64,000 nt of DNA from an uncultured virus (IMG/VR IMGVR_UViG_2576861110_000002) (Duplodnaviria > Heunggongvirae > Uroviricota > Caudoviricetes). Location: IMG/VR virus record IMGVR_UViG_2576861110_000002, positions 1-64,000 of that record. One strand, 5' to 3'. The notes beneath the pieces are model-generated. The model saw only the letters and a list, made by a program, of their open reading frames with translations, was not told where the DNA came from and did no database searches. Each line of letters starts with the position of its first letter. Positions within the stretch are counted from its first letter, which is position 1. Of the stretch, positions 19,401 to 63,723 are shown one piece after another. The translations under genes and the position numbers were made by a program.

Positions 19401-19548
19401 ATTCCTAACAAAAATAATGAATTGGAACTAGGGTCCTTTTATATAAATACAACGGTCAATAATTCTGGAACTAAGTGTTTTAAGGATTATGTCATGCAAG
19501 AAGAGTTTCAAGTTTATGTAAATCTTACTTGCTTGATTTGAGGTCGTT

Positions 19549-20247
19549 ATGATTAAAAAAAGTAACCGCCGTCAGTGGAGTGAATTTTTCTCTAATAATA
19601 AAAGACAGGAACTCTTTAAGGATTTCAGTGTTTCATTAGATAATGACAAAGTTAAAAAGCAAAAAACTAGCTCATGTAAACATGTGTTTTTCCCATGCCG
19701 TGTAGAAAAAGAAAATGAGGGTGAAAACGGTGAAAATACTATATATAGGGGAAGCACAGGCGGTGTTATCATTTCTGGTAAGCAATACATCACAATCAAA
19801 TTGCCTTATGGATTAAGCGCTAACGAGATATGGCGGGCTACAATTGATCAGAACGGAAAGCAAAGAAACAGTCTTTCAGTAGGTGCTAAAAAATATAAAG
19901 ACAAGGTTCAAAAGCAATATGGACCTATGTTTAGGGCACTTAAGTTAAAAGCTATCGATCAACTTTGTGAAATACGATTAATTGTTCAGCCACCACTTAA
20001 AACTCGGTCTTACAGTGCAAAGACTTATCCACGATTTGATATTGATAACTATCCAAAACTACTAATTGATAGTGTCAAAGGTGATGGCTTGTTATTCAAA
20101 GACGACAATATTTTCATAAGTGAACAAATCAAGCTGGCAGAACCATGTGAAAAGGGTTGTGTCTGGCTTTCCTGTGTTTTTACTGAAGAAACTGATTGGT
20201 TGTCAAAAACTGTAGATTTTGATTGGTTAGCTGGGAGAAGCATTTAA
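19549..20247 (+). CDS. rusA: RusA-family Holliday junction resolvase
   Basis: LPYGLSANEIWR, FDIDNYPKLLIDSV and FKDDN motifs. Confidence 0.82.
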   Translation: MIKKSNRRQWSEFFSNNKRQELFKDFSVSLDNDKVKKQKTSSCKHVFFPCRVEKENEGENGENTIYRGSTGGVIISGKQYITIKLPYGLSANEIWRATIDQNGKQRNSLSVGAKKYKDKVQKQYGPMFRALKLKAIDQLCEIRLIVQPPLKTRSYSAKTYPRFDIDNYPKLLIDSVKGDGLLFKDDNIFISEQIKLAEPCEKGCVWLSCVFTEETDWLSKTVDFDWLAGRSI

Positions 20248-20934
20248 ATGGCGAAAAAGAGCGATTTGCAACGTCGAGTACTTATTGGAAGAAAACTTGC
20301 AATGGCGCGTGATATGGCTCAATTACGTCAAGAAGACGTAGCTTTAGAGATATTCGGTACACCACATAAAAACCGAATGAGTGAAATCGAAAATGGTAAG
20401 TTAATGCCAGATGCAGAATTACTTTCGGTGCTATGTCAAAAATACGGTGTTTCAGCCGACTGGGTTCTTGGTTTTACTATTGAGCCAGAACTAGACAAAA
20501 CAGCTTCTGTAGCTGGTATTCTGTTTAACAGTCTAGGTGAAATGATGAGTGAATACACTCAAGCCATGGCATTTCAATTAAGTATGGCTGCAGCACAGCA
20601 TATTGCATCTTTCCCGAAAGCCTTAACTGTAGAGCTGCTTGAAGCATCAAAGGGGCTGATTCAAGCTTGTTTATCGCAAGACCAGTCTATTCAAGAAAAG
20701 GTTTTACCTGAACTTCACACTCTTATGCGTATTGTTCGTGAGTGTGAACAGAATCGTGCAAAACAAATCCGTAATTTAGAGATGGCTATTGATGATGTTT
20801 TCCAGCGTGAAGAGAATGATTTACAGCAAAAAGCTTTAATTGATCTTATCCAAAATAAAAAACGTTTTAGCAAGGCTTCTTTACAGCAGCAAGCTTTAGA
20901 TGAAGTGAAACAAATAGGTCTATTTGCTGAATAA
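20248..20934 (+). CDS. XRE-family HTH transcriptional regulator with helical C-terminal domain
   Basis: IGRKLAMARDMAQLRQEDVA...MSEIENGK...GVSADWVLG. Confidence 0.8.
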   Translation: MAKKSDLQRRVLIGRKLAMARDMAQLRQEDVALEIFGTPHKNRMSEIENGKLMPDAELLSVLCQKYGVSADWVLGFTIEPELDKTASVAGILFNSLGEMMSEYTQAMAFQLSMAAAQHIASFPKALTVELLEASKGLIQACLSQDQSIQEKVLPELHTLMRIVRECEQNRAKQIRNLEMAIDDVFQREENDLQQKALIDLIQNKKRFSKASLQQQALDEVKQIGLFAE

Positions 20935-20947
20935 GGGATAGACTTTA

Positions 20948-21787
20948 ATGGCTCGCAAGATTGAATACTCGGAAGAAATTTGGAACCGGCTAAAAGAAGT
21001 CTATGAATCTTCACCTAAGATTACATGGCAAGCTTTAGTTGATCAGGTTGGCGAAGAACTCGGTTGTGAGATGCCTTCGCCATCCGTTGTACGCCGTAAA
21101 GCACTTGCTGAGAAATGGAAAAAGAAAGCTAAATCTTTAGTCAAAAAGACAGCCCAAGAGCTCAATAAAGAGATTAAAAAATTGACCAAAAAAAATAATG
21201 GTCAAGAAGATACACAAAATACTGATAAATCAGAAAAAAGTGATAGTCAAAATTCCGTCAAAAAAACGTCAAATATTGCTGAATTTAATAGTCAAAACTC
21301 TAAAAATAATGGTAATAACAACGGCGGGCGTTCTACAGTCAACGAGAACTATCTAAAGTCAGCTCTTGTTGTCAAAAATAACCGTATACGAGCTCATAAG
21401 CTGGGTGAGTTAATTACAGATACTATCGATAGTGTTATTCATATTAGAGATGAAGTCCTTAATCTGAATAATCCTACTGAAGATGAATTAGCGCTGGTTA
21501 AGTTTAAAATGGGCTTGATTAGTCAAGTGGTTGATTTGAACGTTAAACAAAGTATCAGCATTTCTAACATTGCTCGAACTGAGGCAATGTTCTGGGGCTT
21601 AGATGTAGATGATCTTAAAGACCAATCGGAAGTTCAAGCACGGCGTAGTTCAGTTATTTCAGGTGCTGAAGAAAGAATGGCAATTGCAAAAGCTAATATG
21701 AAAAAGAAAAAAGAAGAGGCGTTTATGCGTAAGTTAGCGTTAATTGAAGCTGGTGAAGTGGAGCCTGAAGATAGTAGTAATGAATAG
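20948..21787 (+). CDS. HTH/coiled-coil protein, possible terminase small subunit
   Basis: N-terminal WNRLKEVYES...VRRKALAEKW resembles TerS HTH; no other clear TerS candidate in the window. Confidence 0.4.
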   Translation: MARKIEYSEEIWNRLKEVYESSPKITWQALVDQVGEELGCEMPSPSVVRRKALAEKWKKKAKSLVKKTAQELNKEIKKLTKKNNGQEDTQNTDKSEKSDSQNSVKKTSNIAEFNSQNSKNNGNNNGGRSTVNENYLKSALVVKNNRIRAHKLGELITDTIDSVIHIRDEVLNLNNPTEDELALVKFKMGLISQVVDLNVKQSISISNIARTEAMFWGLDVDDLKDQSEVQARRSSVISGAEERMAIAKANMKKKKEEAFMRKLALIEAGEVEPEDSSNE

Positions 21788-21865
21788 TTTGTAATTTTAA
21801 AGGTTTTTTTTGAGGTTATTATCACGTGCTTACTATAATGTAGAGAACACTAACAATTTAGGAGA

Positions 21866-22138
21866 ATGTTCACTATGTCATCTAGTATTACCGCTGCTGA
21901 AGCTGCAAAAATTGCGGAGCAAAGCAATCCAACCGTTCTTGATATTATTAATATTCTCAGTAATGCAATTAAAGCTGACTCGTGTTTTGGAAAACGGTTT
22001 TCCAGTTGGAGTTTTGACAAAAGTGCCGTGAGTTTAGAGTATTTAGAAGAGGCAAAAATTCATTTCTCAAAATTAGGTTATGTAGTAGAAATTATTACTG
22101 ATAGCCCTGTAAGTAACACTTTTAAAGTTAACTTTTAA
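21866..22138 (+). CDS. Hypothetical protein
   Basis: SD AGGAG, upstream TATAAT at ~21834. Confidence 0.65.
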   Translation: MFTMSSSITAAEAAKIAEQSNPTVLDIINILSNAIKADSCFGKRFSSWSFDKSAVSLEYLEEAKIHFSKLGYVVEIITDSPVSNTFKVNF

Positions 22139-22212
22139 GTCTAGGAACTCATCATAAATTCATAGTTAGTAAGTTGCAAAAATGCTCTATATCAGTATGG
22201 GGCATTTTTGTT

Positions 22213-24501
22213 ATGGCAAATTCAAATCACAATGATACAGTTTTATCCTATGACGAGCTCGGCTTTATCATTGGAATGAAACGAGTTGAAAAAAAAGTTA
22301 GTACGATTGATTCAAACATTGAAAAGATCATTGGTATCCTTACTCAAAGCTTTGAAGAGCAAAAAGCACAATTTGCACAGCCTCAGCCTAAACTGACTGA
22401 ATTTCAAAAGATGCTTAATGCTGTCAATAATAGACAAGCTTTAGATTTTGAAGATTTATTAAAAGACAAAGCTAATCCAATCACTCAATCTTTTGTTGTA
22501 GCAGACAAGCTGGTCAAAGACTTTGCTGATGTTTTGGACCAATCAATTAATGACCTTAAAACAGTAGATAAAAAACAAATCAACAAATCTAATGGGCGAA
22601 AGCCCGCTATAGAAATTAATAGTCATGATGACTTATCAAAAATTGTAAATCCTAGTGTACCAGAGCGTGACGAAAAAGGCCGTTTTGTATCAAACCCTAA
22701 TGAACCCCAAAACCAATCATCAATTCGTAAAGTTGCCCAAACGATATCTACGGCGATTAAAGGAGTAATGCCGAACTCAACACAAGGTGTAGATCCTACA
22801 GTTGACGCAATCAATGAAGTTGGTCATTTACTTTCACCTGTACGCCGTGCAGCAGGATTAGCTTTGCGGCCATTAACTGGATTGATGCGTAGTAAAAAGA
22901 GAAATGAGCCATTACCTCGTGAACAAGAGAACCATAACCGCAAACAAATAAAGTTATTGCAGCGTATTGCCGATAATTTGGCGTCTAAGGGTGGTTTGTT
23001 AGGTTCTCTAGGGAAATTGCTTACTTCCGTGTTATCTGCTGGTGGTGGGCTTCTAGGTGGTGCTCTAGGCAAAGGAAAGAAAGGTGTAGGGAAATTAGGA
23101 AAGGGCTTAGGTAAATTTCTTAAGTTTGGCCGTGGTCTACCCGTAATAGGTGCATTGGCTGCTGGTGCATCATTATTAGATTGGAATGAACAAAGCACAC
23201 AAGAAAAAGGCGGTACTGTTGGTAGTCTTGCGGGTGGAGTAATTGGTGGTACTGTCGGGTCTTTATTTGGTCCAGTTGGAACATTAATTGGTGGTATGGC
23301 TGGTTCTTGGATTGGGAATAAGCTAGGTACCGTAGTTGCGCCGTATTTTAAAGAGTGGACAGATTCATTAATTGCTGCAGATGTACCAGGTATTATTAAT
23401 ACTGCTTGGAAAGGGTTTGTTAACTATGCAACCAATGCTTTTGAACTGACAAAAGGTACAGCATCAAAAGTTGTAGACGGTGTTAAAGATACTGCTAGTG
23501 ATACCTTAGATTTCATTAAGGATAAATTTAATCGCTTTAATCCATTTCATGACGGCGTTCCCACATGGGGCATTGGGCAAGGAGTTTATAAGCCGGGTTT
23601 TGGAGCAAATAAAAATGTACCTGCTTATGGATCAACTATTTCTCCAATTGGTGAAAAAACTAAGGAAAAGCAACTTGCAGTTTACAATGCTATGAAGAAA
23701 GCAGGTTTTAATGATAATTGGGCTGCTGGTTTAACTGCTTCCGTTGGTCGAGAAAATGATTATCGAGATGAATACTTGTTTGGTAAACATCAAGATAAAG
23801 CTGGTGGAATAAATATGGGAATGATTTCTTGGCAAGGAGCTCGTAAAGACCGGCTTACGGCATATATGAAGGAAAGGGGATTACTTGATGCAAACGGTAA
23901 TATGGTACGGAGCCAAGCAGCTTTAGATGCACAAGGTGCATTTATGAAGCATGAAATCGAAACGAATCCAGAATATGCTTCAGTTAAAGCTTATATGCAG
24001 AAAAACCCAAATGCATCAAAAGAAGATATTGCCCGAGTTCTCGGCACAAAATATGTAAGATGGGCGTATGGGCAAACAAAGCTTCGCAATGGGAAGTCAT
24101 TTGATTATAGACCGCATTTAGAAAAGGAATATAAATACAGAGCTAACATTGATAAAACCGTTCAGGAACAGAAAACTAATCTACCTAAAGAAAATACCCC
24201 AACTGTATCAGATTTGAAATCAAGTCATATTGTGGAAAATACAAGAGCTAAAGTTGCTAGTGTTTTAAGCACCCAAAAAGCTATCGTTCCCCAAGCTACT
24301 ACAAAAGCAAAACCTTCATTAAATAATCAAAATAGATTATTAACTAATGTCACGCCGTTTAAGCAACCTTTAAATACTCCTAACCCACAGGAAGTCGTTG
24401 TTGTTAATGGTAATAATGGTAATATCAGTCAGAATGTAAATGATAGATTCCTAGCACATGCTTTAACTGGTGGGATAGGAATGGGAAACTTAGAAGGTTA
24501 G
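22213..24501 (+). CDS. Tape-measure/injection protein with phage tail lysozyme domain (P1 Sit-like role)
   Basis: Gly-rich hydrophobic segments; AAGLTASVGREN...GMISWQGARKDRL lysozyme-like motif; ATG 22213 preferred over TTG 22174. Confidence 0.75.
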   Translation: MANSNHNDTVLSYDELGFIIGMKRVEKKVSTIDSNIEKIIGILTQSFEEQKAQFAQPQPKLTEFQKMLNAVNNRQALDFEDLLKDKANPITQSFVVADKLVKDFADVLDQSINDLKTVDKKQINKSNGRKPAIEINSHDDLSKIVNPSVPERDEKGRFVSNPNEPQNQSSIRKVAQTISTAIKGVMPNSTQGVDPTVDAINEVGHLLSPVRRAAGLALRPLTGLMRSKKRNEPLPREQENHNRKQIKLLQRIADNLASKGGLLGSLGKLLTSVLSAGGGLLGGALGKGKKGVGKLGKGLGKFLKFGRGLPVIGALAAGASLLDWNEQSTQEKGGTVGSLAGGVIGGTVGSLFGPVGTLIGGMAGSWIGNKLGTVVAPYFKEWTDSLIAADVPGIINTAWKGFVNYATNAFELTKGTASKVVDGVKDTASDTLDFIKDKFNRFNPFHDGVPTWGIGQGVYKPGFGANKNVPAYGSTISPIGEKTKEKQLAVYNAMKKAGFNDNWAAGLTASVGRENDYRDEYLFGKHQDKAGGINMGMISWQGARKDRLTAYMKERGLLDANGNMVRSQAALDAQGAFMKHEIETNPEYASVKAYMQKNPNASKEDIARVLGTKYVRWAYGQTKLRNGKSFDYRPHLEKEYKYRANIDKTVQEQKTNLPKENTPTVSDLKSSHIVENTRAKVASVLSTQKAIVPQATTKAKPSLNNQNRLLTNVTPFKQPLNTPNPQEVVVVNGNNGNISQNVNDRFLAHALTGGIGMGNLEG

Positions 24502-24508
24502 TTTATTA

Positions 24509-25330
24509 ATGACTCTTAGAGCTTTAAATTTAACGGTATTAATTACTATGCTTGCATTAGCTGGTTGTAATAAAAATAATGAGCAACCAGCTGAAGGAGC
24601 TAACTCAGCAATGCAAGAGCCCGTTAAAGCGGAAGCAATTTACGATTTTACATCTTTAAATGAATCTGATTTTTTGAATCAAAGTATTTTAATAAATGAC
24701 GACAAAACCTATAGAGGAATTAGATTTCATGATTATGATGTAGGTACAAAATTAATAGGTGCAGCGAGTATCGAATCAATTCAGAAGGTTGATAATCATA
24801 CTTTGGCTTTGGCATCCTCAAGGCCATTAATAAATCAAAAAGCTGGTTTATATGGGGTACTGGCAAATAAAGCTAATTTTGATGGTAATTTAGTTGTTTT
24901 AGTTTTTGATCCAAATGTACAAGCAAGGGTTATAGAAGGCGACATAATTGCATTTAAGGGCACTGTTGCGCCGTCAGACGTTTTTACTTATACAAACCCA
25001 AAAACTAACCAAATTGAAGAGTTACCAATTATATATGTTCATTTTTATCAAGCTGGCGAACTATCAATACAAGGTATTAACGATTATTTAAAAAAACAAT
25101 TTTCTGAAATTCCTAAAATCATTCAAGACAAAATTCTCCAATATGAAAAGCTCAATGATTCATGCCGTGGTGGGTCGGGTGATGACCCAAAAACTATTGA
25201 AAGTTGTGAAGCTAGAGATACTTTATATGTGGAAATTAAAAATGGTGGATGGTGTTTTGGCTCAGAAAACGAGAATGCGGTGGGATCGGAAATAAATTGG
25301 TTACCCTGTAAACTGAATAAATATCATTAA
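24509..25330 (+). CDS. Lipoprotein of unknown function
   Basis: Signal peptide ending in lipobox LALAGC. Confidence 0.8.
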   Translation: MTLRALNLTVLITMLALAGCNKNNEQPAEGANSAMQEPVKAEAIYDFTSLNESDFLNQSILINDDKTYRGIRFHDYDVGTKLIGAASIESIQKVDNHTLALASSRPLINQKAGLYGVLANKANFDGNLVVLVFDPNVQARVIEGDIIAFKGTVAPSDVFTYTNPKTNQIEELPIIYVHFYQAGELSIQGINDYLKKQFSEIPKIIQDKILQYEKLNDSCRGGSGDDPKTIESCEARDTLYVEIKNGGWCFGSENENAVGSEINWLPCKLNKYH

Positions 25331-25568
25331 ATTATAGATAGATATGGGATTGAGAAATACAGTCCCATTTTTATTGAGAGTAAATAAACTATAGAGTTAT
25401 AACTCTGTAAATTCTTGAAATAAGAGATAGAGGGTTATTTATTTAAATAATAAAATTTCAGTCAACTAAAAAAAATTAGTAATCTAAATGGATACGAGTA
25501 TGTTGACTTTATAAATATAATATTTATGATTAAAAAAAGGCATCTCGGTTCTTTAAAAATAAGAACAA

Positions 25569-26522
25569 ATGGAGTTATTGATGAAAAATTACACTGTTCT
25601 CGTTAAAGTTACTGAATCTAAATCACTTTTTAGAAAAAATGTGTATGAAGCAACTTTATTTGAACACCCAAAAGTCACAATAACAGGATCAAGCTATGAG
25701 GAAGCCGTAAGTAAGATTCAAGAAAAAATCATGGAGTATTTTGATTTCTTGAGTGATCGCGGTGAAGATATTCCTGAACCGGCTGAAATGACAGCGGTCA
25801 TGTTTAAAAATCGTGACAAAGATGTGTTTTTTCACGTTGTAAGTATTGATACATCTGTTTATAGCGAAAAAACAGAAAAAATTAATGTAACAATGCCGAT
25901 CTCTTTAACAAGAAAAATTGACGATTTTTTAAAAGATAAAGTTCATAATTCAAATCTTTTTTCATCAAGATCTGATTTCATTACTAAAGCATGTAAACAG
26001 TACTTACCATATGCTCAAAATTTAGCTGCAATTTTTAATAATGAGAAAAGTTTTTCTGCTTTGAGGTACAAAGAGAGTAATACAACTGATAATTGTTGTA
26101 ACCTTTTACAGTATCTAAATAATTCTTACGGTGAAGAAGTTATTCTCTTTGCAACGCATCGTACACCAAGCCACGGTTATAGTCATGACGATGGACCCGA
26201 GACAAATTTGCCGCTATTAGGGGCGATAGTAAAACTTAATTTACCTGCTTTACGTGACACATATATTATTTTCGATGGATTATTCTTAACTGCACAAAGA
26301 AAGCCTAGATATAATGAGGTAAAAGAAGTTCTCGATACTGCTGTATTAACAAATAAAACAAGTTTTATTCGACATGCTGTCCCATTTACATCTCAATTAG
26401 ACCCTGCCGAGGCTATAAGTCTGTTAGGAGAGTTTCCGCGTAATAAATTAACAGAAGATTCGAGACCGGAATTTTTCAATTTATTGAGTAATATTTCAGA
26501 AGCGCAATATCAAAATTATTAA
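25569..26522 (+). CDS. HicB-family antitoxin domain + RHH fused to an unknown ~170-aa C-terminal domain
   Basis: TITGSSYEEAVSKIQE...DRGEDIPEP (HicB) and EKINVTMPISLTRKID...SRSDFITKA (RHH). Confidence 0.75.
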   Translation: MELLMKNYTVLVKVTESKSLFRKNVYEATLFEHPKVTITGSSYEEAVSKIQEKIMEYFDFLSDRGEDIPEPAEMTAVMFKNRDKDVFFHVVSIDTSVYSEKTEKINVTMPISLTRKIDDFLKDKVHNSNLFSSRSDFITKACKQYLPYAQNLAAIFNNEKSFSALRYKESNTTDNCCNLLQYLNNSYGEEVILFATHRTPSHGYSHDDGPETNLPLLGAIVKLNLPALRDTYIIFDGLFLTAQRKPRYNEVKEVLDTAVLTNKTSFIRHAVPFTSQLDPAEAISLLGEFPRNKLTEDSRPEFFNLLSNISEAQYQNY

Positions 26523-26584
26523 TCAAAAAAAAGCCTCGCTCCCTGGAAAGAATACGAGGCTTGTCATCACTTAGGAGTAACAAC

Positions 26585-26881
26585 ATGAGTACTTTAACAC
26601 AATTTAATAGGCCTTTGGAAAACCCTATTATTGAATCAATTGATAAACAGTTCTTTGACTTATTAGGTGGTGAAGAACCCCATGGACGCCAATGTTATTG
26701 GGTGGTAATTGAAAACGGAGAGGCGGGAGTTCAGCAATTACCTGCACATTTTGCTCCAACAAATGTTGTACAACTTTCAGATGCTTTCAATTCACTACGT
26801 GAAGTTTTTGTTGCAGGAGAAATTTTGGAGCATGCAAGAGCTTTGAAAAAAATTCCATTTAAAATGAAGAAGAATAGTTAA
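26585..26881 (+). CDS. Hypothetical protein
   Basis: SD AGGAG before ATG 26585; followed by a terminator at ~26930-26957. Confidence 0.6.
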   Translation: MSTLTQFNRPLENPIIESIDKQFFDLLGGEEPHGRQCYWVVIENGEAGVQQLPAHFAPTNVVQLSDAFNSLREVFVAGEILEHARALKKIPFKMKKNS

Positions 26882-27079
26882 TAAGGGAATATTACTTTAA
26901 TAGTTTCTAAAATGAACCTCCCTTAATTTAAAAGCCAGCAATTAAGCTGGCTTTTTTAAATTTAATGACAAATATAAAATTCTTAATTTAATTGATATTT
27001 CCAATGTAATTGATCATATAGTTCTTGAAAAATATTATTCATAAATGCATAATTCGCGCGCGTTTTAAGGATTATGTTA

Positions 27080-27825: not shown

Positions 27826-27912
27826 TAAAGGTTATGAAAATTAATGGAACTTACTTAATTCTCAGAATAAATTTACTTAGAAGATAACCTCATTGATATG
27901 AGGTTATTTTTC

Positions 27913-28945: not shown

Positions 28946-29053
28946 GTATATATAATAATCCATGCATTTCTTATTTTCAAATATGGAACCATTCACGCTT
29001 ACATATATACAAAAGCAATACCCTTAATATAGTTCTTATTAAGGGTGTTTTTT

Positions 29054-31776: not shown

Positions 31777-31854
31777 TTCAATTGGAACTGTTGAGTTAGC
31801 GCTCAAATACAAAATGATTTCATAGTCCTGTTCATTAGTTCAGGACTTTTTTAT

Positions 31855-32552: not shown

Positions 32553-32624
32553 TTTGGAACTGATTAAATTTCAACTGTAGAACAACTGAAACAATAGCCT
32601 CAATCACAGCATTGGGGCTTTTTT

Positions 32625-33530: not shown

Positions 33531-33532
33531 TA

Positions 33533-47929: not shown

Positions 47930-48018
47930 AATATTTTTCTTGTGGAGTTGGAACTAACTAACTTCTAAGCTTTCCTCATTGTAAATAATGGCTTTATTCA
48001 ATGAATAGGGTCATTATT

Positions 48019-48150
48019 ATGTCCAAAGCTTTAGCTTATGCACCGGCAGTAAATACAGCTAGAACAAAGTTGCCCAGTACTGAATCAGATCCTTTCTATT
48101 TTAGGCACATTACAAGAAAATCAGTTATTATGAAAATCATAACAACTTGA
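48019..48150 (+). pseudogene. 43-aa ORF behind a late element; probable truncated late-gene 5' end
   Basis: GGAAC element and hairpin upstream; MSKALAYAPAVNTARTKLPSTESDPFY then runs into AT-rich sequence. Confidence 0.4.
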
Positions 48151-48979: not shown

Positions 48980-49106
48980 TATAGCCCGCTTTTGCGGGTT
49001 TTTTTATTAATATAAAGTCAGTTTTCTAAAATGGAACTGATTAAAAACCAATAGCAAAAACATCATTAATCTTGTTGCATAAATCTGCATTTTGAGCATC
49101 AAAATT

Positions 49107-51099: not shown

Positions 51100-54000
51100 A
51101 TGAATGGTTTAAAACGTGCAAAGATTTTAAGTTACAACGCAAAAGGTCGTACTGCACAAGTACACATTCATGGTTTAACTGATGGCGCGAGTGAAGGAAT
51201 TACAGCAACTTTTGCCTATCCAGTCGGCGATAGTGATTTAGATACAGAAATTCAAATTGTGGATGGGGAAGACGTCTATGTCTTCTTTGAAAATGGTAAT
51301 GAAGAACGTCCAGTAATCCATAGTTATGTCAGTCACGGAGATGGTGCGATTGTAGGGGTGCGCCGTATTCGACAAGACAATATTGAATTTATCTCTAAAG
51401 AAAATTTAAAAGTAGATTCTGGCACAACCGTTTCAATCAAAACGCCGTTAATGAATGTACAAGCTAATACTCAACAAACTGGTAATAGCACATTAACGGG
51501 AAATAGCACTGTAGTGGGTAATACTTCAGTTGCGGGCAATAGTGCTGTAGCAGGTAGTATGGCCGTTGGCACAACGCTTACGGTTGCAGGTGTGCCTATT
51601 GACCCTAAAGCTATTGAGGGTGCATTTAAAGATGCTCTTGATAAATTAGAAAGTTTAAAGGAAGAGTTAAAAGAACAAGGCGAAAAAATTGATGAAAATA
51701 AAGATCAAGTAAGCCAAGAGATTGAAGAAAAAGTAAAAGAAGTAGAAAAGTTAATTGAAAATATTAAAGATTCTGATGCATTTAAATTGCTTGAAGAAGG
51801 TATCAATCATATTGATGAAGAAGTGCAAAAAATACATGATCAAGTAAAAGAAGTTGGTCAAATTGCGCAAAATAAAGTTGATGAAGTAAGAGCTTATATT
51901 GATCAAGAAATTATTGATACCAAACTAATTGTTGAACAGCATGCCAGTGATGCAAACATTCGTTTAGATGAAGCCAACCAACGTATTGATCAGTCTATTC
52001 AAGCGAATGAAGCGCTGGTTGCAGATGCTCAGCAACGTGCAATTCGTGCTGAAAAAGAACTCGATGACAAAATCGGATTTATTAAAAGAGAAACAGATTC
52101 AATCATTGCTGATGTAAGAAGTGATGCAGATGAAATTCGATTAGTCGCAGAAAATGCAAAAAAAGTAGCTGATCAAGAAGTTCTAGACCGTAAAAAACAA
52201 GCTGCTGATACTCTTATTGTTATTGATCAAACTAAGGCCGCCTTAAAACAAGACATTGATCAAAACTTAGTAAAAGCTGGTCAAATGATTGATGATGCTA
52301 AATTAGCATTAGGTGAAGAAACTAATACACTCATCAATCAAAAAATTGAACCTATTGTTAACCAAACTGAAGCTGCAGTTAAAAAAGTTGATCAAGTTGC
52401 AGCCCAGTATGTTGACCTAGATAAAAAAGTCGATTCGGGTCTTCTAGCTGAAGCTGAAGCACGTGCAAATGATAAAGAGGCTTTAACTCAAAGTTTTGAG
52501 CTTAAGTTTGCTGAAATGCAAAACGAATTCGGTAAGTCAAACGCTCTAATTTCAGAAGAAATAAAAACTCTAGCAGCTCAAGATAAAGCGTTTACTGAGC
52601 AAATTAGCACCGCACAATCACAAATTGGTGACAACAAAACTGCTATTAACAAAGTCGAACGTACTGTAAGTGATTTGAATCAATCTATTGCTGAGAAAAC
52701 CTCACAAATTGAATCTACTCTTAAAAACTCACAAGAACAAATAGAAGGTAATGCCGCAAACATCGAAAAAGTAGAATCTTCAGTGAAACTTGTTGATGAG
52801 AAGGTTGTTTCAGAAGCAAAAAAACTTGAAGAACTAAAAACTGACTTTAATTCGAATAAAACTAAAACAGAGTCGGATATAGCAACAATTGCTCAAACAG
52901 TTTCTGATGGTGATAAAGCCTTATCTTTACGTATCGACTAAACGAAAGCAGCTTTGGAAGAAGCTGATCGGAAATCTAATGCAAATATTTTAGAAGTTAC
53001 TGAGTCACTTACCGAGTTGGAACAGTCTACTGCTTCGAAATTTAGTGAACTTGATACAAGTATCTCTAAAGAAAACTTAAAGGTACAAGGGCAAATTACT
53101 GATATTCAAAAAAGTGTTTCGACCTTAGAAAGTAATACAAATACAAGCATAAATGGCCTTTCATCATCACTTAAAACTACTGATGATCTTGCAAAACTGG
53201 CTTTTGATAATGCAGCAGAAGCGCAGCAAACAGGAACAACGGCGGTAAAAGCTACCGAAGCCCTTTCTCAAAATTTATTAAGTCTAAAATCTCAAACTCA
53301 AGTAACTTCTGGGGTACGTGCAGTCGTCACGACAAAAGGTATTGATGACTGGACACGTTGGCGTACCACTGCAGAAGCGAAAGTAATTCAAGATTCTGAT
53401 GCACTAGGTGGTTATATTCTTGAGCTTGGGAATAATGCTGATAATGATGAAACATGGGTTCATTGGAATGAGTTTGTAAAAATTAACCCAGATACACTTT
53501 ATCGGGTTCGTGCACGTTTCCGCCGTGTACTCGGTGAAAATGGATCTATTTATCTTGGTGTTGCATGTAAAAATGCAGACCAAAGTAAATACGTAACGAC
53601 TACAAACACCCTTGCAGAAGATATGGGTTCTTCTAACTACTTATTGTCGGCCATTAAACCTAATTTAGGTGAGTGGCAAGAAGTAGTTCTATACATGAAG
53701 GGTAAGTCTACTGGGGCAGCAACTGGCTTAGGGACAATTGATAATCCGCGTACTTTCCCCGCGCAAGCTGAATTTTATGCCCCAATCTTTATTGCAAACT
53801 ACAACTTCCAGACAGGAATTTGTCAGCTTAATTACATTATTGTTGAAGATAACAACTCATTAGCTTCAGCTAATGATGCAACCGCAACAGCAAATGATTT
53901 ATTCAAAACAGCAACTAACAGAACAGAAGCTGAAGCTGAAAGGACCAGTAAGCTTGAAACAAGAATGCAGAATGCAGAAACAGGTATTCAGAGCAATGCT

Positions 54001-57000
54001 CAAGCTTTATTGAAAACAGCTACAAAGAGTGATCTCGAAAGTGCAATGGGCCGTGTATCGACTGATATAACAGCTGCTGTAGATAATTTAAAAATCGGTG
54101 GTGTTAATGCTGTTGCTAATTCAGAAGCTCCTAGAACATCGACAGCTACAACAAGTCGTGAATACTTAATGTATGAACGAAGCAAAGAGTTAAAAGTTTT
54201 TTATGACGAAAACTTAGATAAGCCGGTTACCATTTCATTTGAAGTGAGTGTACCTGTTGCCGGTTCGGTTCAGGTTTACTCATCTAATGGTTCTGCCCAC
54301 TTTTTCACAACTTCAGTTACAGTAACTAAAGCAAATGAATTTCAAAAATTTGCAGTGACGGTTTTTCCTAAATTAAACACTGGCAGTTCAACTGAATCTA
54401 CAATTGAGTTTTACGGTACATATGGCTCAGGCCGAATTCCAACAATTCAAAAATTACAGATCGAAGCCGGCAATAAACCTACAGCATGGAGCCCAAGCCC
54501 TCGGGATACGCAAAGCTCATTAAATGCTAATGCAGAAGCGATTAAGATCACTCAAGCGGAAGTTAAGAAGCACGGCGAAACATTGTCTTCTCAAAGTTTA
54601 GATATTTCTAAGCTTAGAAATGATCTAAATTTAACTAATAATGAAGTAAATAAAAAGGCTTCGTCAGAAGCATTGGAAGCAACGAAATCAGATGTAACAG
54701 AACAAGCTGGACAGATTAAAGCAGTTACAGAGCAAGCAACAGCACTCTCTGCAAGTTTGAGTAGAGCCGCAGCTGCTGGTTCGAATTTGCTTATCCAGTC
54801 AAATGTTGTGGGTAAATATAACGGAACTTCATATCCTCATCTTTCATATAAGCTAGGCGAGGATTGGGAGGTAGGCGCAAAATACACTTTAATGTGGTGT
54901 GCCGAACATCAAAGAAATGGTGCGGATACAAACTCTAATTTGGCAGTTTATGCTGGGGGAGGTCAGCAAGCCTTACAATCCGTTGTTAATACAAATGGCA
55001 AAGTTATTAATAAAATAACCTTTGTTAAAAATAATCAAGTTATTGAAAAACGTGCTTTAAATTTTTACATGATTAACAGTCCTACTGCTGCTCAAGGTTC
55101 AGTCGGAACGGTTTATTGGGCAGTGCTTGTCAGGGGTGACTTAATCACTACTGAATCGTGGATCCCCAGTGCTTATGACTACAACGCTGCAGTAGACCAA
55201 GTTAATGCAAACTTTAATGATTTCAAACAAACATATGTGACTGAAAAGGAGGCACTAACAAAGAGAACATCAAGTCTTGAAACTGGACTTTCAAATGCTG
55301 AAAAAAATATCGATAACACCGCAAAAGCACTGCAGAACTATGCAACCACAGCAAAGTTAGACGAAGCTACAGCAAATCAAACTAATCAGCTTAATGCTCA
55401 AATTAAAAATGTTAAAGCATCTATTGAATCTGCTAATGATAGTGACTCATTACTGCCAGATTTTAATTTAAAAAACCCTGAAGATTGGATTAATTACTAT
55501 AGTTATGATTTGAAAATCCACTTTAAAACAACTAATACAGGTAAAGTTGGCAATACTGTCTTTAGAAAAGATTCTTCGAATCAAGCAGGATGTTGGATAT
55601 ATAGCCGTAAAGCTTTACCGACAAATCGTTCATATAAAGTTAGCTTTTGGGTCCGCCGAAGTGCAGATTCTACAGGTGATTGCAGCATTACGGCTATGTA
55701 TGGCAAAGCTGATGGTAGTTTTTCAAATGCTACAATCACTGCATCAGCGATTGCTTTAATTAGAATTCCAGCAAACGAAGAATGGGTATATATCGAACAG
55801 GTTGTAACTTTTAATACTCATCCACAAATGAAGTTAGGTTTTGCGCTTGGACACAATGGCAGTGGTGGTTGGTGGGAGTTACAAGCTTATCGGGTAAATA
55901 GCGTTTTCACAGACAAAGATGTAGACACATCACTTGTACGCGCTACACAACTACAAAATTATTCGACTACTGCTGACACAAATAAAGCAGTTGCCGCAGC
56001 TACAGATGCATTGGAAGCAAAATTTAAGCAGAAGTTCGGAAATTTATGGACAGATAGTTCAGCAACACTGGATAGCACCCGTTATACAAAAGCAGAAACA
56101 AATAAAGCTATAGCTGAAGAAAGTAAAATTCTAAAAGCAACAATCTCGTCAAGTGGTGGAGACAATTTAATCAAGAATGGTGATTTCTATGCGCCTTTTT
56201 CAATCTCTAACTGGCGTCAGAATGCTGTTGTTGAAGGTAATGTTCTAGAAGTTTTTAAGGATGCTTATGGCGCAAACTGGGGGAGATTCCGCTCTACGAA
56301 TTCGTCTACATATTTTAAAGGTTTTATCGAGTCAATTACGATAGCTGATGGTTTAGAAATAAATCAAACCTATACGTTGTCACTTAAAGCCAAAGCTCTA
56401 ACTGCAGCACAAAAAACTTTGCTATTAATCATCCATAGATATGATGGTAGCAGTAATAATCAGGTTGTTAATGAATGGAATATTGCAACAGATAAAGAAG
56501 TATTATGTACTTATACTTTTGATACAAATATCAATAACTTACAGTATATTAATATTATCCTATGTGCTCAAGTAGGGTATGCTCCTGATTTCTTAATTCG
56601 AGAAGTTCAATTAGAGAAAGGTGAGTTAGCAACAGGATTTAGAAAAAATCCTCGTGAAATTGAGAAAGGTTTAGAAGCTAACTCATTAGCAATTACAGGT
56701 ACTAAAACAGATGTTCAGAAAAATTTAGAAAAGATCCAAGTACTAACTGAAAATTATACAACTCTGAAATCTACTGTTGATACGAATAAATTAACAGTTG
56801 ATGGGAAGTTTCAGGAAATAAACTCTACAATTAGTGATAATCAACAAAATATAACCCAATCAATTAATAGCTTAGATTCTAATTACAAGCAGTTAAATCA
56901 AGATCTAGGACAAGTCTTTAATTACAGAGTTTATTCTTCAGGCTGGAATAATGATTTTACTGGAATCAAGAACTTAAAAGGTGAGACTATATCTGTAGCT

Positions 57001-60000
57001 TCTAACCGCGGCTTTTCTGTGCATGTTTTAGCAGCAGATGGCTCGATTGCAACTTCAACTCGATATGACACATATGGTGACCCTGCAAACGCCGTTGCCA
57101 TGAGTAATGCTATTAATGAAATACCTAAAGATACTTTTGTGATAATCACAAATTATGATTACATTGCTATGAATTTAAACACAGTTAAAGCTGCGTTACT
57201 TTCATTAGGTGCAAATCAATTTACTCTTGATCAGATTACGGGAAGGGATGCATATATCCTAATTGGTCAGAAAGGAATAGGGGCTGGAAGAGGTATTGAG
57301 CTCCATGCAACTCCTGATTCTGGTCTGAATGGTGCAAAACAGATAATGGTTGCTGTTCAGGTCGTTAGTGGCATTCCTCTAGGTTTGGCAAATAACAGTG
57401 GAAACTTGCAAAAAGTTTTGGAAAATCATGCTCAAATTCTTCAACAAAAAATTACTCGATCTGATGCAAAAGAAGTATTTGCAGAAGAAATAAAATCCTT
57501 TTCAGCAAAACTAGATACTATTCAATACGCAGAAGACAATTGGATTTTATTAGGAGATGAAACCAAAACATTAAATGTTTCAACAGGCACAAATCAAACT
57601 TTTCCGGTCTGGGAACTACAATATAAAATTAAAGAACTACCAATCGCTAAAGGTGATCCTGTAGTTATACGAATCAAATATAATGCTTCGGCAGGTCTAA
57701 TTGGTGCAGTTTGTACCATCCAATTTCACGGCGCGGTATATGGGCTTGGTTTACCATTATTTACTGTTCAAGCAAGTGGAGAATTAGAATTAACGGGGAT
57801 TTTTCCAAGTGATGTAAAAGCTACGAATTTTGAATTTGTTCCTCTGGGTTTAAGATTTGATAATGCTCCTTCAGCGGGCACATTTTCAGTTTCGAATATT
57901 TTCATTAGCCGAGGAAATTCTGCTCCTAATTTCAAAGGAGGATTTAAAACTACTCTTAAACAAAATGCGAAATTTGTGGAAGATACATTTATCAATGCTG
58001 ATGTTAACAAAGGTGTTATTGCACAACAAATTCAGCAATATGACGCTTCTGTACCAGGTGGACTTTCAACGGTATTAAAAACTACTAAAGCAGCAGCGGA
58101 TCAAACATCAAAAGATTTAATTAATCTTCGTAATAATGATATTACTCAGCTCCAAACAAGCACCGACAATCTGGGTTCAGCATTAGAAAATACAACTAAG
58201 CTTGCAATGATGATTACTAACGGTAAGTTGCTTTACGGTGATGTAAATTTCAAGAAAGGAATGAACAACGTCGGCACTTATAACAATCTAGGCAATGGTA
58301 CAGTTAGTGTTACTCGTGAAGCTAAAAGTGCTGACAATCCGACAACTTCAACTCATGAACTTAGAATCGTTACAACTGGTTCAGCAAGCCCGAATTTCGG
58401 CGGTTTTCATCAACAGTTTTTCACACGTTCAAATGCTATTTTTATCATTAAATACCTGATTAAATTACCTATCGGCTACAAGTTATATCCTGCAGCAAAT
58501 TTAATGGGCGATGGATCAGTAGATAAATTCATTGGTAGCACTGACGGGACGGGGAGATTTGAAGTTTATGTTCGTATGGTTAAATCCGGTGCCACCGGAA
58601 GATTCGATACTTCTGGATTCGTACATGTAGCGGGTGGACCAGCCCCAACACCTGAAAGCCCTCTAATCTGGACTTTAGCTCAAATTGAATGTTATGACGT
58701 AACTGACTATGCATCTGCAGATCCTAATTTACAAGATTTCGTTTCCACAGCTAACGAGTCATTAGGGACATTAACTAATTTTAAGGAGACATGGGCAAGT
58801 AAGCTTACTGAAATGTCTTCTAAATTGGATAGAACTAATAGTGCATATATTCTTAATTCTGACCTCACAAATACAAATATTGAAAGAGCAATTGCTGCAT
58901 CGTCAAATCAGTTAAAGTCGGAATATATTGATCCATTACAGAAAAATACTGAAAGCTTAAAAGAAAATATTTTAACGAATGTTGACTTATCAGGTTTGAA
59001 TCCAGATATTTACTATCCTGTTATCTTTCAGTTGGCTACCGGTAAGCAAAAGTATGATTTTAAAGTATTTTGTACTTTAGGCGGCCAAAATAATAGTAAT
59101 GTGCCTTGGGCTACACATGGTACACGCTCTTTCGGTCTTAATTGTGAATGGAGTGTTACCGCCAATGGATGGGGTACTCAAGCAGAAAATAGAATTATTG
59201 ATAAGTTCTCTTTTAGCTGGACTGCACAATCACCTTTAATAAATATTAAGCAAATGCCTAACTCTTCAATTGAAACTGTCTTTTTACGGGGTGGGGCGAG
59301 ATATGATATTTCACACTATAAAACGATTACACCACTTATTAAAACTGAGTCTTTCACAGCTTTGGGACAATCTATTGAACCAATTCAATATAATTCGTCA
59401 CTTGTACCAGTACCAATTTTTGCAGAAATTGTAAAAGCTCAAGACACAGCTGCTGCAGCATCTAGAACAGTTGCTGACATACAAAGAGATTATGTGACTT
59501 CTTCAAAATTGAATGAGGCAGTTGCTTCATCCAATGAACGATTATCAGCCCTCTATTCAGCAAATAGCCAAACCATTATGGCGTCTGCTTTGCAAACTTT
59601 TGAGAAAGATTGGATTATTAGAACGCCTAGCGGCTCAAGAATAGGTATGCGTTTAATTGAAGATCAAACTTGTCGTGGTGGTTATGCATTACGAATGGGA
59701 GATAATTCTGGCAACGATGAAATCTGGCTAAACTGGTTCTCTACCTTACCAATTGATGATAATAAGATGTACCGGATTAAATACCGCTACAGAAGGGTGT
59801 CAGGTGCTGGTGTCGTTTATGTGGGGGCCACCTGTTTTAATGCCGCAAAATCTGCATTTATTACAGATGCGAATTACATAAATGGAGATATTGGCTCAAG
59901 TCATTATGTGGTTGGAGGCGCTGCTCCTGCCTTGGGTTCTTGGGTAACTGGAGTTGCTTATTTCAAGGGTAGATCTGCTGGTGCAAGTAGTGGGGCTGGA

Positions 60001-60681
60001 ACGCTTGCTAACCCTAAAACATTCGCAAATAAAGCAGCTTTCTTTACACCTGTTTTTATTGGTAATTATTCAGCTCAAGCAGGCGAAGTAGATCTTGATT
60101 ACATTGATATTGAAGATGCAGACAATATTGCTGAATTTGAGAGTTTCAGGACCACTTATACAACTGATGTAGGAGCTTATGCAGGTTCTCTTCAAACCCT
60201 AACTTCTGTTTATGGTCCAAATGCAATTAATCTTAAGTCTCAAGTTGATTTGATCAATGGGATGAAAGGTAAATATGTAATGGGTATGGATAACAACGGC
60301 GTTTTCTCAGGTTTATCCATGGTAAGTGAACAAAATAATGGAACTGTCCAAACTTCTATAGGTTTCCAAGCTGATAGAATTTTCTTCACAACAGGTACTT
60401 CTTCTACTAAATACATGCCGTTTATAGTCCAAGACAATCAAGTCATTATGAATAGTGATGTATTTATTAAGAATTTGACCGCAGCAAACTTCAAAGCGAA
60501 GTCTTTAACAGCTGAACTGTTTAAAGTCGATAAATTGAGCGCGATTGCTGGTGAGTTGGGGACATTAACTACCTACAAGGATCCGGCTAAACCCAATGGT
60601 GCAAGGATGGTTTTAAGCGGCAGTTTAATTACGGTTTACGACGATAATAATGTTGTCAGGGTTAAATTAGGGCTGTGGTAG
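51100..60681 (+). pseudogene. Baseplate spike (gpV/gp5 OB fold) fused to a giant central fibre with carbohydrate-binding-like, ILEI/PANDER-like and J-type C-terminal (DUF1983-like) domains; one in-frame TAA at 52939-52941
   Basis: ORFs 51100-52941 and 52954-60681 share a frame; junction reads RID*TKAAL; N-terminal VYVFFENGNEERPV; C-terminal KYVMGMDNNGVFSG...FQADRI...RVKLGLW. Confidence 0.8.
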
Positions 60682-61781: not shown

Positions 61782-61833
61782 TTTTAATAAAAAGAAAGCC
61801 CCTTAATTGGGGCTTTCTCCATTTAAATGCATT

Positions 61834-62028
61834 TTATGCAGGCTGATCATTACTTTGTGGTTCTTCTACAAAAGTGTAGTTAACTGCAATGGAACCAGTC
61901 TCCAAATCCCAGCCTAGGTTTAATGTTTTGAAAGCAGGACGATTATTATATCGTTGACTATTTACAATATCTTTTGTCTTTTGAGCTAATTCGATATCTA
62001 AATCGTTAAATACTTTAACTTCAGCCAT
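61834..62028 (-). CDS. Small hypothetical late protein
   Basis: SD AAGGA, own GGAAC element on the minus strand, bidirectional terminator at ~61794-61818. Confidence 0.65.
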   Translation of the reverse strand: MAEVKVFNDLDIELAQKTKDIVNSQRYNNRPAFKTLNLGWDLETGSIAVNYTFVEEPQSNDQPA

Positions 62029-62100
62029 GAGCTTTTCCTTTGAACAGATTAAAAAATAAGTTCAGATAGAATTGCATGCAGTTAATTAATGAAATCTGTA

Positions 62101-62124
62101 GGGTTCCAATTCACTTTGGAACCC
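62101..62124. promoter_or_regulatory. Back-to-back GGAAC late elements forming a palindrome
   Basis: GGGTTCCAA-TTCACT-TTGGAACCC between divergent genes. Confidence 0.7.
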
Positions 62125-62187
62125 ATCTAAAAGTAAAAAAATAGCAGCCTTCAAAATACATAATTATTTAGGTATTTTGGCTTCGTT

Positions 62188-63723
62188 ATGTCTTCTCGGT
62201 TCTTATCGTTGTTACTCGGTGAAAATGTTAATTCATATGATCAGCAATTCGATACGTCTAATCAGGATGCAACAGCACAGCTATATGAAACTATGGCTCC
62301 GTTTTCACTTGGGACTAACCAAACCAAAGCCAATAAGAAGCGTACTCGGAAAGAAATTCTTACTAAATGGGAGAGAATGTTACGCTTTGCACCTATCGCA
62401 GAGGGTATGGGGATTCATGTTTCTGCAGCCTTAGGCGGCGATTCTTATAGCGGCCAACAAGTCTTTATTACGCCCGCAGAACGGTTAAAAAAGGCGAATG
62501 GACCAGCAGCTGAAAAACTAAAAAAACAACTAGATGAGCGCCGTGTAAAGATGGAAAAGCTGATCAATAAGTATTTAAGCAAGCTAGCCCGAGATGCAAT
62601 TTCATTTGGTGATTCTTATGCACGTATTTACGGGAAAAAAGATAAAGGTGTAATTGACCTCGTATGTAATGAGTATACTTATCCACCATTAATACAACCT
62701 TTCGAACAAGGCAGTAAGACTGTCGCCTTTTTTTGTTTAGATCCTCGCAATTGGCAAAAAACTATTACCAAACTGAATACTATCCAAATGGTACGTTTCA
62801 AAATGCCCCGTATGAGCAATATTGCTCAATATGAGCTTGTTGAAACTGGTCTTGTCACGAAAATGTTGGAGGGTGATGATCCAGATGAGCTACCAATCTT
62901 ACCCGCGCATTTAGGCGGCTCATTTCTTTATGAGATTGAAGATATTTATGATGATGTAATCCTCGCTTTGGCATCTATGAATAGCCAGCAAATCGCAGAT
63001 ACCGTAAATCAGATGTTCTTGACAGTAAATATGTCAGGAATGCCGCCAGCACAACGTCAAGCCTATATTCGTGGTTTAGAAGGTTTGCTTAAAAATCATG
63101 AGGCTTATGTCCGTGATGCTTTATCAGGTGGTGAAGCAGTCTGGAATACTGCTTTTCACATGCTTCCAGTATTTGATGAAAAACAAGTTCTAAATCCAGT
63201 GGGTGATATCAAGAATCAACGAAGCTCACCTATTAATATTGAACAGTTCATGATTAATGTCCGTTTGTTAATGGGCGGTATAGGTCTAGACCCAAGTATG
63301 GTAGGGTGGGCTGACATGTTAACTGGTGGTATTGGAGAAGGTGGAGCATTCCATACTTCTGCACAAATCATGCGTAGGTCACAAGACATTCGAACAGCAG
63401 CTTCCGAAGGGATTAATCAAATTCTTCACTTGGATTGGGGTTTTGCTTATAACGAACAATTTGAGCCTGAAGATTACCCTTGGCAAGTTGAATATTATTC
63501 AAACCAAACTGCAGCAGCTACGGAAGAAATCAACAATGCTCAATCAAGAATGAATACAACATTACTTAAAACACAAGTAATCGCATCATTGAAAGAATCA
63601 AATTTAGATGTAGATATTATGGCCTACATTCTTGAGCGCGATACAGGTATGAAATATGAGGAAGCATTAACATTAGCTGAAAGTATTGCTAAGAGCCGTA
63701 AATTTCCAGAGGATGAAGAATAA
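62188..63723 (+). CDS. Portal protein (P1 Prt-like)
   Basis: 511 aa, helical; GIGLDPSMVGWADMLTGGIGEGGAFHTSAQ. Confidence 0.7.
   Translation: MSSRFLSLLLGENVNSYDQQFDTSNQDATAQLYETMAPFSLGTNQTKANKKRTRKEILTKWERMLRFAPIAEGMGIHVSAALGGDSYSGQQVFITPAERLKKANGPAAEKLKKQLDERRVKMEKLINKYLSKLARDAISFGDSYARIYGKKDKGVIDLVCNEYTYPPLIQPFEQGSKTVAFFCLDPRNWQKTITKLNTIQMVRFKMPRMSNIAQYELVETGLVTKMLEGDDPDELPILPAHLGGSFLYEIEDIYDDVILALASMNSQQIADTVNQMFLTVNMSGMPPAQRQAYIRGLEGLLKNHEAYVRDALSGGEAVWNTAFHMLPVFDEKQVLNPVGDIKNQRSSPINIEQFMINVRLLMGGIGLDPSMVGWADMLTGGIGEGGAFHTSAQIMRRSQDIRTAASEGINQILHLDWGFAYNEQFEPEDYPWQVEYYSNQTAAATEEINNAQSRMNTTLLKTQVIASLKESNLDVDIMAYILERDTGMKYEEALTLAESIAKSRKFPEDEE

Follow-up and report, generated by a model that had tools for sequence, protein, structure and literature searches.

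How are the late genes of a temperate phage switched on together if they are scattered over its genome in separate modules? The question is raised by a stretch of 64,000 nucleotides (nt), hereafter called the window, which forms the first 64 kb of the 78,862-bp IMG/VR virus record IMGVR_UViG_2576861110_000002. The window is part of an integrated temperate myovirus of Acinetobacter, similar to phage ABMM1 and with a G+C content (GC) of 37%, in which the late modules are dispersed in the manner of phage P1. A previous reading of the window (the sequence-only reading) had proposed that 13 late transcription units are each preceded by a short box, GGAAC, followed after 29 nt by a hexamer of the form NANNNT, and that both together constitute a late promoter which is used by the host RNA polymerase with the help of a phage activator. 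The core of this proposal, namely activator-dependent promoters that possess a -10 element only and occur once per late module, passed every sequence test that was run. We consider it very likely that the sites are activator-dependent sigma-70 late promoters, composed of a TTGGAAC box, a weak -10 hexamer and a pyrimidine-A start, which are served by a candidate activator of the phage and drive units closed by terminators.

Box and hexamer within the window

Positions within a site are counted from the first G of GGAAC, which is taken as 0, and the distance between GGAAC and the hexamer is referred to as the spacer. All 13 boxes were found at the coordinates and in the orientation reported before, and TGGAAC is indeed near-universal, as a T precedes the box at 12 of the 13 sites and an A at the remaining one (22144). 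The core can be extended to TTGGAAC, which is invariant across the window sites apart from this A at -1. Likewise, the constant bases of the hexamer were recovered at their fixed distance, A at +35 in 12/13 and T at +39 in 13/13 sites, and the site described as deviant, 31784, has TTTCAT at spacer 29 and CATAGT at spacer 32. The pattern GGAAC-N29-NANNNT matches the window 22 times, compared to 7.8 ± 3.1 times in shuffled sequences; the stricter pattern TGGAACH-N28-NANNMT matches 14 times, compared to 1.21 ± 1.10, and none of 100 shuffles reached 14. Eleven of these 14 matches are sites of the original list, all intergenic, and three lie within coding sequence (20981, 39421 on the minus strand, and 50774).

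A distance of 66-78 nt between box and start codon had been given for all sites; it holds, as 66-79 nt, for 12 of them and does not apply to 19424. Counted from the first G, the likely start codon is 69 nt away at 22144, 28985, 32556 and 47950, 67 nt at 27846 and 74 nt at 49033. At 19424, the ATG located about 73 nt downstream opens a mini open reading frame (ORF) of 15 codons only, and the actual gene starts 125 nt away, at 19549. This mini-ORF (19498-19545) shares the 125-nt leader with a second TGGAAC box at 19467, and both are kept in ABMM1. Beyond the window, the virus record carries three further sites (64382, 72166 and 73994), and the one at 73994 precedes holin-lysin.

One of the coding matches, 20981-21021, is complete with respect to box and hexamer and resides within a gene for a protein of 279 amino acids (aa), 34 nt past its start. 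The match occurs at identical codons in ABMM1 and in the relative G003 (about 45% protein identity), and may be a by-product of the conserved residues W-N ... P-K-I-T-W or an internal promoter.

Conservation of the arrangement in relatives

Distant relatives were fetched via alignments of the sheath protein, which yielded the whole records G002 (80.8 kb, GC 44%), G003, G004 and G005. In these four, the sheath protein shares 43-58% identity with that of the window, and the GC of the relatives is 37-50%. Sites were selected without bias as TGGAAC in intergenic DNA with a gene of the same orientation beginning 30-160 nt downstream, while the hexamer was ignored. Six whole genomes (G000, ABMM1 and G002-G005) gave 78 such sites, 67 after near-duplicates had been dropped. 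The hexamer NANNNT is present at spacer 29, the value claimed for 12 of the 13 listed promoters, in 56 of the 67 sites and at spacer 28 in 6 more, as opposed to 0-13 sites at the other spacers from 15 to 40. In a control set of TGGAAC words within genes, NANNNT was found at spacer 29 in 24/147 and at other spacers in 7-17 cases. The spacing is thus kept in relatives, at 28 or 29 nt in 62/67 sites, while the spacer sequences have diverged. The ABMM1 orthologues of 22144 and 27846 have unrelated sequence in the 28 nt that separate the box from the hexamer, and box, spacing, type of hexamer and downstream hairpin are retained.

A spacer of 28 nt occurs throughout in the GC-rich fragments G006 and G007 and in the fragment G008, as counted by hand on upstream sequences. 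In G006 and G007, C frequently takes the place of T before GGAAC; all G008 sites have A as their sixth base (GGAACA), and a run of A is located at about +9 to +13. Among the gene-oriented intergenic sites of the fetched records, only 62107, which faces leftward, and its copy in ABMM1 are not on the plus strand. The genes driven by the sites are virion and lysis genes, including holin-lysin. In G005, the word GCCGTGG recurs between box and -10, at varying positions, in at least five promoters (8908, 14781, 22479, 34222 and 48957), and GCCACGG is found in the promoter at 16837; the word might represent an additional binding site.

Evidence for a -10 element and a start point

Among the bases of a -10 hexamer, sigma-70 is most stringent about the second and the sixth, which here are the conserved A and T. 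As a consensus, the hexamers yield CAAAAT, found as such at 14/62 sites, with A at position 4 in 46/62 and at position 5 in 47/62, and TGn precedes the hexamer in 18/62. Among the sites with a spacer of 29, +45 is C or T in 45/56 and +46 is A in 42/56, a signal which played no part in site selection. By its sequence, this is the usual pyrimidine-purine start dinucleotide, placed 7 nt after the hexamer where a start point is expected, and it sits exactly at the predicted start (+1), which the sequence-only reading had put 46 nt after the first G. Across the sites of the six genomes, a median of 69.5 nt (interquartile range 66-73) separates the first G from the start codon, which predicts a leader of about 23 nt. 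Relative to this predicted start, the box falls at about -46 to -42, as had been stated, and the extended TTGGAAC occupies about -48 to -42.

The statement that no shared -35 box is evident was borne out: the best match to TTGACA 16-18 nt from the hexamer averages 2.08/6, compared to 2.55 in shuffled spacers. The profile is that of a sigma-70 promoter with a -10 only, with the conserved A at -11 and T at -7 in 62/67 sites, a purine at the start and an upstream box at a fixed position. A weak second element follows the box, with C at +8 in 27/62, C at +9 in 31/62, A at +10 in 36/62 and A at +12 in 40/62 sites; it is pronounced in G002 and missing from G004. As a mere lead, TGG (-1 to +1) and CCA (+8 to +10) could form a dyad with its centre near -41.5 from the predicted start. 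A check of RNA data was uninformative, as four raw runs (same species label, four studies) contained 0 reads of this phage for 27000-46999 at 90% likeness; four older RNA runs, stored as contigs, share 59% of sequence words.

Terminator-like hairpins at the promoters

The hexamers had been read as plain -10 elements, which disregards that many of them overlap terminator hairpins that had been missed. Often the hexamer forms the 5' flank of a strong hairpin followed by a T-run that ends at the ATG, and at 19/62 sites a hairpin with a folding free energy (ΔG) of -8 kcal/mol or below lies between hexamer and start codon. For an RNA starting at the predicted +1, such a hairpin collapses, with a change in median ΔG from -12.4 to -1.3 kcal/mol. 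By a strict stem finder, which is crude and overlooks bulged stems, 20 of the 67 sites have a hairpin upstream of the box only, 11 an embedded hairpin only, and 1 both; 7 of the 11 hairpins that are embedded only begin at +40. A G+C stem-loop followed by a T-run, as in intrinsic terminators, was detected by scan at 19367-19394, 29017-29049 and 32596-32619. Ahead of the gene family to which the gene at 32625 belongs, a hairpin is present in all five lineages with differing stem sequences, and its 3' arm contains GGGG or GAGG some 7 nt ahead of the ATG.

We infer that the hairpins are intrinsic terminators of the preceding unit, which fits the observation that upstream and embedded positions exclude each other. 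About a third of the promoters are placed inside a terminator-like hairpin, with its 5' arm upstream of the predicted start, a layout which was newly recognized here. The loop of one hairpin, at 29026-29040, is nearly the reverse complement of its counterpart in ABMM1 (site 70198), and the stems are identical, which looks like a flip of the loop between inverted repeats.

Comparison to known promoter systems

The sites resemble the Lpa-dependent promoters of phage P1 in that many dispersed late units each possess a -10 hexamer, no -35 and a short upstream box. In P1 (LPpac, LPhot, LPpmgL and LP26), a 9-bp '-22 region' box ends 4 nt before the -10, whereas the box described here has a different sequence and is located 28-29 nt from the hexamer. 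A search with P1 Lpa against all ORFs of the six genomes gave best E-values of 0.28 (phmmer) and 1.3 (BLASTP), and hhalign assigned a probability of 0.1% to a match between Lpa and the helix-turn-helix (HTH) family discussed below; the 279-aa protein is unrelated to P1 PacA. The sites share with P1 the layout of dispersed units with a -10 only, and do not belong to the Lpa class by box position and by the lack of an Lpa homologue in these searches.

The late promoters of phage Mu activated by C, and likewise its middle promoter activated by Mor, have a recognisable -10, no typical -35, and a small HTH activator that is bound upstream and works with the host holoenzyme (PMC2582627). Mu has four such late promoters, as compared to 13-20 sites per genome and an asymmetric 7-bp core in the present phages; this comparison is one of layout and not of protein homology. 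The site of Mu C is a dyad bound by a dimer. A further likeness, in the DNA-binding fold of the candidate activator (C.BclI, P22 c2, 434), exists to lambda cI at PRM, to P22 c2 and to the C-proteins of restriction-modification systems. Activators of the cI type that are centred at about -41.5 touch region 4 of sigma. Unlike the sites of these proteins, which are clear dyads beside a real -35, those described here have a weak second half-site and no -35. In T4 middle promoters, which likewise form a large regulon, an asymmetric MotA box at about -30 replaces the -35 and is read together with sigma-70 (AsiA); the present box is located one helical turn farther upstream, and general family scans revealed no MotA or AsiA match among the window proteins.

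GGAAC is the classic -35 core of promoters read by extracytoplasmic function (ECF) sigma factors. At spacers of 15-18, NANNNT occurs in 2-7/67 sites, compared to 56/67 at spacer 29, and no sigma gene was found. Sigma-54 promoters (TGGCAC-N5-TTGC) are not matched either, as there is no conserved GC 10-12 nt after GG and the columns +11 to +13 are mixed or A/T. Based on the spacing, ECF and sigma-54 promoters are therefore excluded, and the earlier statement that the element conforms neither to P1 nor to ECF promoters stands, in that box position and sequence differ and neither an Lpa homologue nor a sigma factor was found. In the literature outside subscription journals, we found no description of the box, and in the ABMM1 paper (PMC10345192) the word 'promoter' occurs 0 times. 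The element is a real and conserved variant of the activator-dependent phage late promoter, and apparently one that has so far not been described.

Candidates for the protein that reads the box

The only non-structural genes common to all box-bearing genomes compared form a block of three at 19549-21787, all on the plus strand. The first (19549-20247) encodes a 232-aa protein with a RusA-like C-terminal part. The second (20248-20934) encodes a candidate activator of 228 aa, with an HTH of the XRE/434 type at residues 4-73 and three long helices, and the third (20948-21787) the 279-aa protein, a second candidate for a DNA-binding protein, which consists of a three-helix N-terminal domain, a disordered linker and a coiled coil. 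Synteny of the block extends to 15 more loci. All three genes are present in 13 of them; L383 has no match for the first gene, and in L370, a locus cut near its end, only the HTH gene is seen. Boxes are located downstream of the block in 17/17 loci scanned. In G003, G004 and G005 no box precedes the block, which therefore looks like the end of an early operon in these phages. G002 has a box with a poor hexamer in this position, and a box is present in the window and in ABMM1, an arrangement that would give positive feedback.

Conservation within the 228-aa protein is highest in the HTH. Pfam matches are below or near threshold (HTH_19, 8.6e-7; HTH_3), and in Foldseek the structural model matches ImmR, C.BclI, P22 c2 and the 434 repressor with a probability of 1.0, the predicted local distance difference test (pLDDT) score of the domain being 75-88. 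As modelled, the protein thus displays the five-helix, HTH_3-type domain of the XRE/434-Cro family. Its named homologues are from Acinetobacter species only and bear generic names, and another scan for loci, seeded with the HTH sequence that diverges most, revealed no new lineage. Fold searches with the models of the 228-aa and the 279-aa protein returned no match at E ≤ 0.001, and only the HTH domain of the former was clearly placed; weak leads for the 279-aa protein are clusters named small terminase, to which it has an atlas score of 0.93, and Foldseek hits with E about 1. We tentatively put forward the XRE-HTH protein encoded at 20248-20934 as the reader of the box, an assignment that we consider quite possible and somewhat short of probable.

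A 263-aa protein encoded at the end of the early operon (18234-19025) was rejected as the activator, as G002 and G004, which are complete proviruses with boxes, do not encode it. Its distant homologues are found in 31 loci (L100-L130, mostly 32-34% identical), of which 20 have no match to the pattern and the other 11 one or two matches, mostly on the opposite strand. The protein carries an invariant CxxC...H...CxxC, an HNH-like zinc motif; it occurs in the A. baumannii lineage, and homologues of about 32% identity are present in proviruses of 40-50 kb, most of them without the box.

A model for late transcription and its alternatives

In the mechanism that we propose, the promoter would consist of the TTGGAAC box, a weak sigma-70-type -10 located 29 (rarely 28) nt further on, and a pyrimidine-A start, which would place the box one helical turn upstream of the usual -35 position. 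There is no -35, and transcription by the host RNA polymerase and its primary sigma factor should therefore need a trans-acting protein at the box, by which the polymerase would be recruited or stabilised. This reader would be a phage protein from the end of the early operon, encoded at 20248-20934, which might act together with the product of the neighbouring gene (20948-21787). Each late unit would be closed by an intrinsic terminator, either just upstream of a box or between -10 and start codon. At an embedded hairpin, the promoter's own transcript would start inside the hairpin and would therefore lack the 5' arm, escape termination and have a free Shine-Dalgarno sequence. Read-through RNA from upstream would fold the hairpin, so that it terminates and the Shine-Dalgarno sequence is masked. 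It might further be speculated that a family of Moraxellaceae phages combines an XRE-HTH/coiled-coil activator of a class-II-like type, acting at about -45, with promoters inside terminators as a double lock on the whole late programme. We regard this as possible and rather doubtful; if true, the double lock would insulate each late module in the prophage.

Several observations weigh against this model. Five of the 67 sites (window 31784, G002 13631 and 41999, G003 42963 and ABMM1 59560) have no NANNNT at spacer 28 or 29, and by the strict finder 35/67 sites are without a terminator. XRE-type HTH proteins usually bind dyads as dimers, whereas the box is asymmetric, and only about half of the sites have the possible second half-site, CCA at +8 to +10, which G004 lacks. 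The fragments G006-G008, which are 38-57% complete, carry the box with a spacer of 28 and no homologue of the HTH protein. The HTH protein stays a candidate because co-occurrence cannot separate the three genes of the block from each other or from the virion genes, and its 279-aa neighbour looks like a DNA-binding protein as well. Binding of a protein to the box and the identity of the activator are deduced from sequence, as are, together with gene content, the start site and the late timing.

One alternative would be a sigma factor, either a divergent one encoded by the phage or an ECF-type factor of the host, that reads box and hexamer by itself. The identity of GGAAC with the ECF core and the rigid distance between box and hexamer, as in a bipartite promoter, are in line with this idea, and the two conserved all-helical proteins of the block at the border between early and late genes would be available for such a role. 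However, the spacer of 28-29 nt compares to 16-17 nt in ECF promoters, and the hexamer, with A2, T6 and a high content of A, is sigma-70-like and unlike that of ECF promoters. In addition, no sigma domain was detected by Pfam in 71 window proteins (the 2575-aa tail protein being left out) or by NCBIfam in eight proteins, and the predicted fold of the 228-aa protein is that of a plain XRE HTH; we consider a dedicated sigma factor improbable. Recognition of the box by a host transcription factor that is conserved in Moraxellaceae, which would tie late expression to a host signal, would account for the invariance of the box among phages of differing GC, and it gains some ground from the circumstance that a phage protein at the box is itself a deduction and that late transcription of P1 also depends on a host protein, SspA. 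It would, however, leave the late genes of the prophage dependent on a host factor alone, and the box regulon coincides with a single phage family and with a conserved HTH gene located exactly at the border between early and late genes, all of which renders a host reader unlikely.

Transcription might also start upstream of the hairpins, for example in the A/T-rich middle of the spacer, so that the hairpin would act as a leader terminator subject to antitermination as known for lambda Q. TTGGAA matches TTGACA at 4/6 positions, and about a third of the sites do have a terminator-like hairpin between hexamer and ATG. However, no T-ending hexamer is conserved 16-18 nt after the box, and the conserved A, T and pyrimidine-A are all located downstream of that position. 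Moreover, two thirds of the sites are without an embedded hairpin, and the mutual exclusion of upstream and embedded hairpins fits terminators of the preceding unit, so that we regard antitermination as highly improbable. The activator-dependent sigma-70 promoter is the reading that we retain.

If so, the sites provide a full and testable map of the late transcription units for a common prophage family of A. baumannii, and represent a promoter class that is not explained by P1 Lpa, Mu C/Mor, P2 Ogr, T4 MotA or ECF sigma factors. The search for the regulator is narrowed to a block of three genes, and the box may serve as a simple marker for the annotation of late operons in these phages. A promoter inside a terminator, if true, would be a compact design for insulation, of interest for phage regulation as well as for synthetic biology. 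Beyond the sequence-only reading, the present analysis adds the unbiased test of the spacing, the signal at the start point, the lineages with a spacer of 28, the rejection of one activator, the three-gene block and the promoter-inside-terminator layout.

The individual predicted promoters of the window

All predicted late promoters described in the following are on the plus strand unless stated otherwise. The first one (19424-19463) consists of GGAAC at 19424-19428 and AATAAT at 19458-19463, with a predicted +1 at 19470; the putative terminator at 19367-19394 lies just upstream of the box, and the unit behind it (19549-22138) comprises the RusA-like, HTH and 279-aa genes. At 22144-22183, the A-preceded box is followed by AAAAAT and by an embedded hairpin with a T-run that reaches the ATG at 22213, where the gene for a 775-aa tail lysozyme-like protein begins. 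The promoter at 27846-27885 (GAAGAT) has an embedded hairpin at 27880-27911 and an ATG at 27913, and the gene behind it is of the Hdf/DarA type with a PBECR1 domain. The baseplate unit is preceded by the promoter at 28985-29024 (TACCCT), with the embedded terminator-like hairpin at 29017-29049 and an ATG at 29054. The deviant -10 of 31784-31826 is followed by a hairpin and then by the ATG at 31855; at its orthologous sites in both G002 and G003, NANNNT is found at spacer 29. The promoter at 32556-32595 (AACAAT), with the embedded terminator-like hairpin at 32596-32619 and the ATG at 32625, drives a unit which spans the terminase genes and extends to 37064.

The next promoter, 37071-37110 (TACCAT), has a predicted +1 at 37117 and precedes the ATG, at 37137, of the tail-collar fibre gene. 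A terminator-like hairpin is located directly upstream of the box at two sites, namely at about 41047-41064 for the promoter 41077-41116 (CAGACT; ATG at 41155, 592-aa head protein) and at about 43928-43953 for the promoter 43961-44000 (CAAAAT; ATG at 44034, tail sheath). The promoter at 49033-49072 (TAATCT) precedes the tail tube gene (ATG at 49107) in a unit extending to 61781. The leftward promoter on the minus strand (62068-62107), with its box at 62107-62103, AATTCT at 62073-62068 and the start codon of a 64-aa ORF at 62028, is positioned back to back with the promoter of the portal gene at 62118-62157 (CAAAAT; ATG at 62188).

The promoter at 47950-47989 (AATAAT, with an embedded hairpin) had been listed like the others as the front of a late transcription unit; the gene behind it, starting at 48019, is a remnant of 43 codons. 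This promoter is a duplicate of that at 72166: 47705-48148 and 71922-72314 are 83% identical over about 400 bp, and the duplication covers the promoter and the initial ~27 codons of the gene at 72234 (baseplate/tail tube). The remnant has a second antirepressor paralogue (46541-47437) as its neighbour; the genes that follow the remnant form a Phd/ParE-type toxin-antitoxin pair and may now be driven by the 47950 promoter.

The phage and its gene map

Towards the left end, the window contains an integrase gene (1-1263) and, on the minus strand, a gene for an S24-type repressor (8045-8818), followed by a rightward early operon (9971-19025) which includes a methylase, a replication initiator and a DnaC-like loader. 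Virion genes extend from about 19.5 kb onward and encode baseplate, terminase, tail fibre, sheath, tube, a 2575-aa tail protein and portal. Several of the virion proteins belong to P1-type families (Hdf/DarA-type, sheath and tube). Among the gene labels given previously, PHROGs annotation agrees for tail fibre, sheath, tube and portal, and 'tape measure', 'Tad1-like' and 'protease' had no family match.

The Acinetobacter phage vB_AbaM_ABMM1, which has been studied as an antibacterial agent (PMC10345192), is the sole isolated relative and is 92% identical across part of the late region; accordingly, a tblastn search with the sheath protein against isolated phages returned ABMM1 only. A contig scan of genomes for relatives yielded a single locus, in Acinetobacter nosocomialis. 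More than 80 near-identical proviruses are present in IMG/VR, making this a very common prophage family of Acinetobacter baumannii.

The giant tail protein (51100-60681) is split in the window into two ORFs of 613 and 2575 aa that are 12 nt apart, and its ABMM1 counterpart is annotated as a single 10.4-kb coding sequence (16609-26964). The large terminase (663 aa, 35073-37064) has a weak match of the Hint/intein type at residues 61-123 (PF05203, E 1e-6), which is below the Pfam cut-off and is located ahead of the terminase N-domain; it may represent an intein or the remnant of one.

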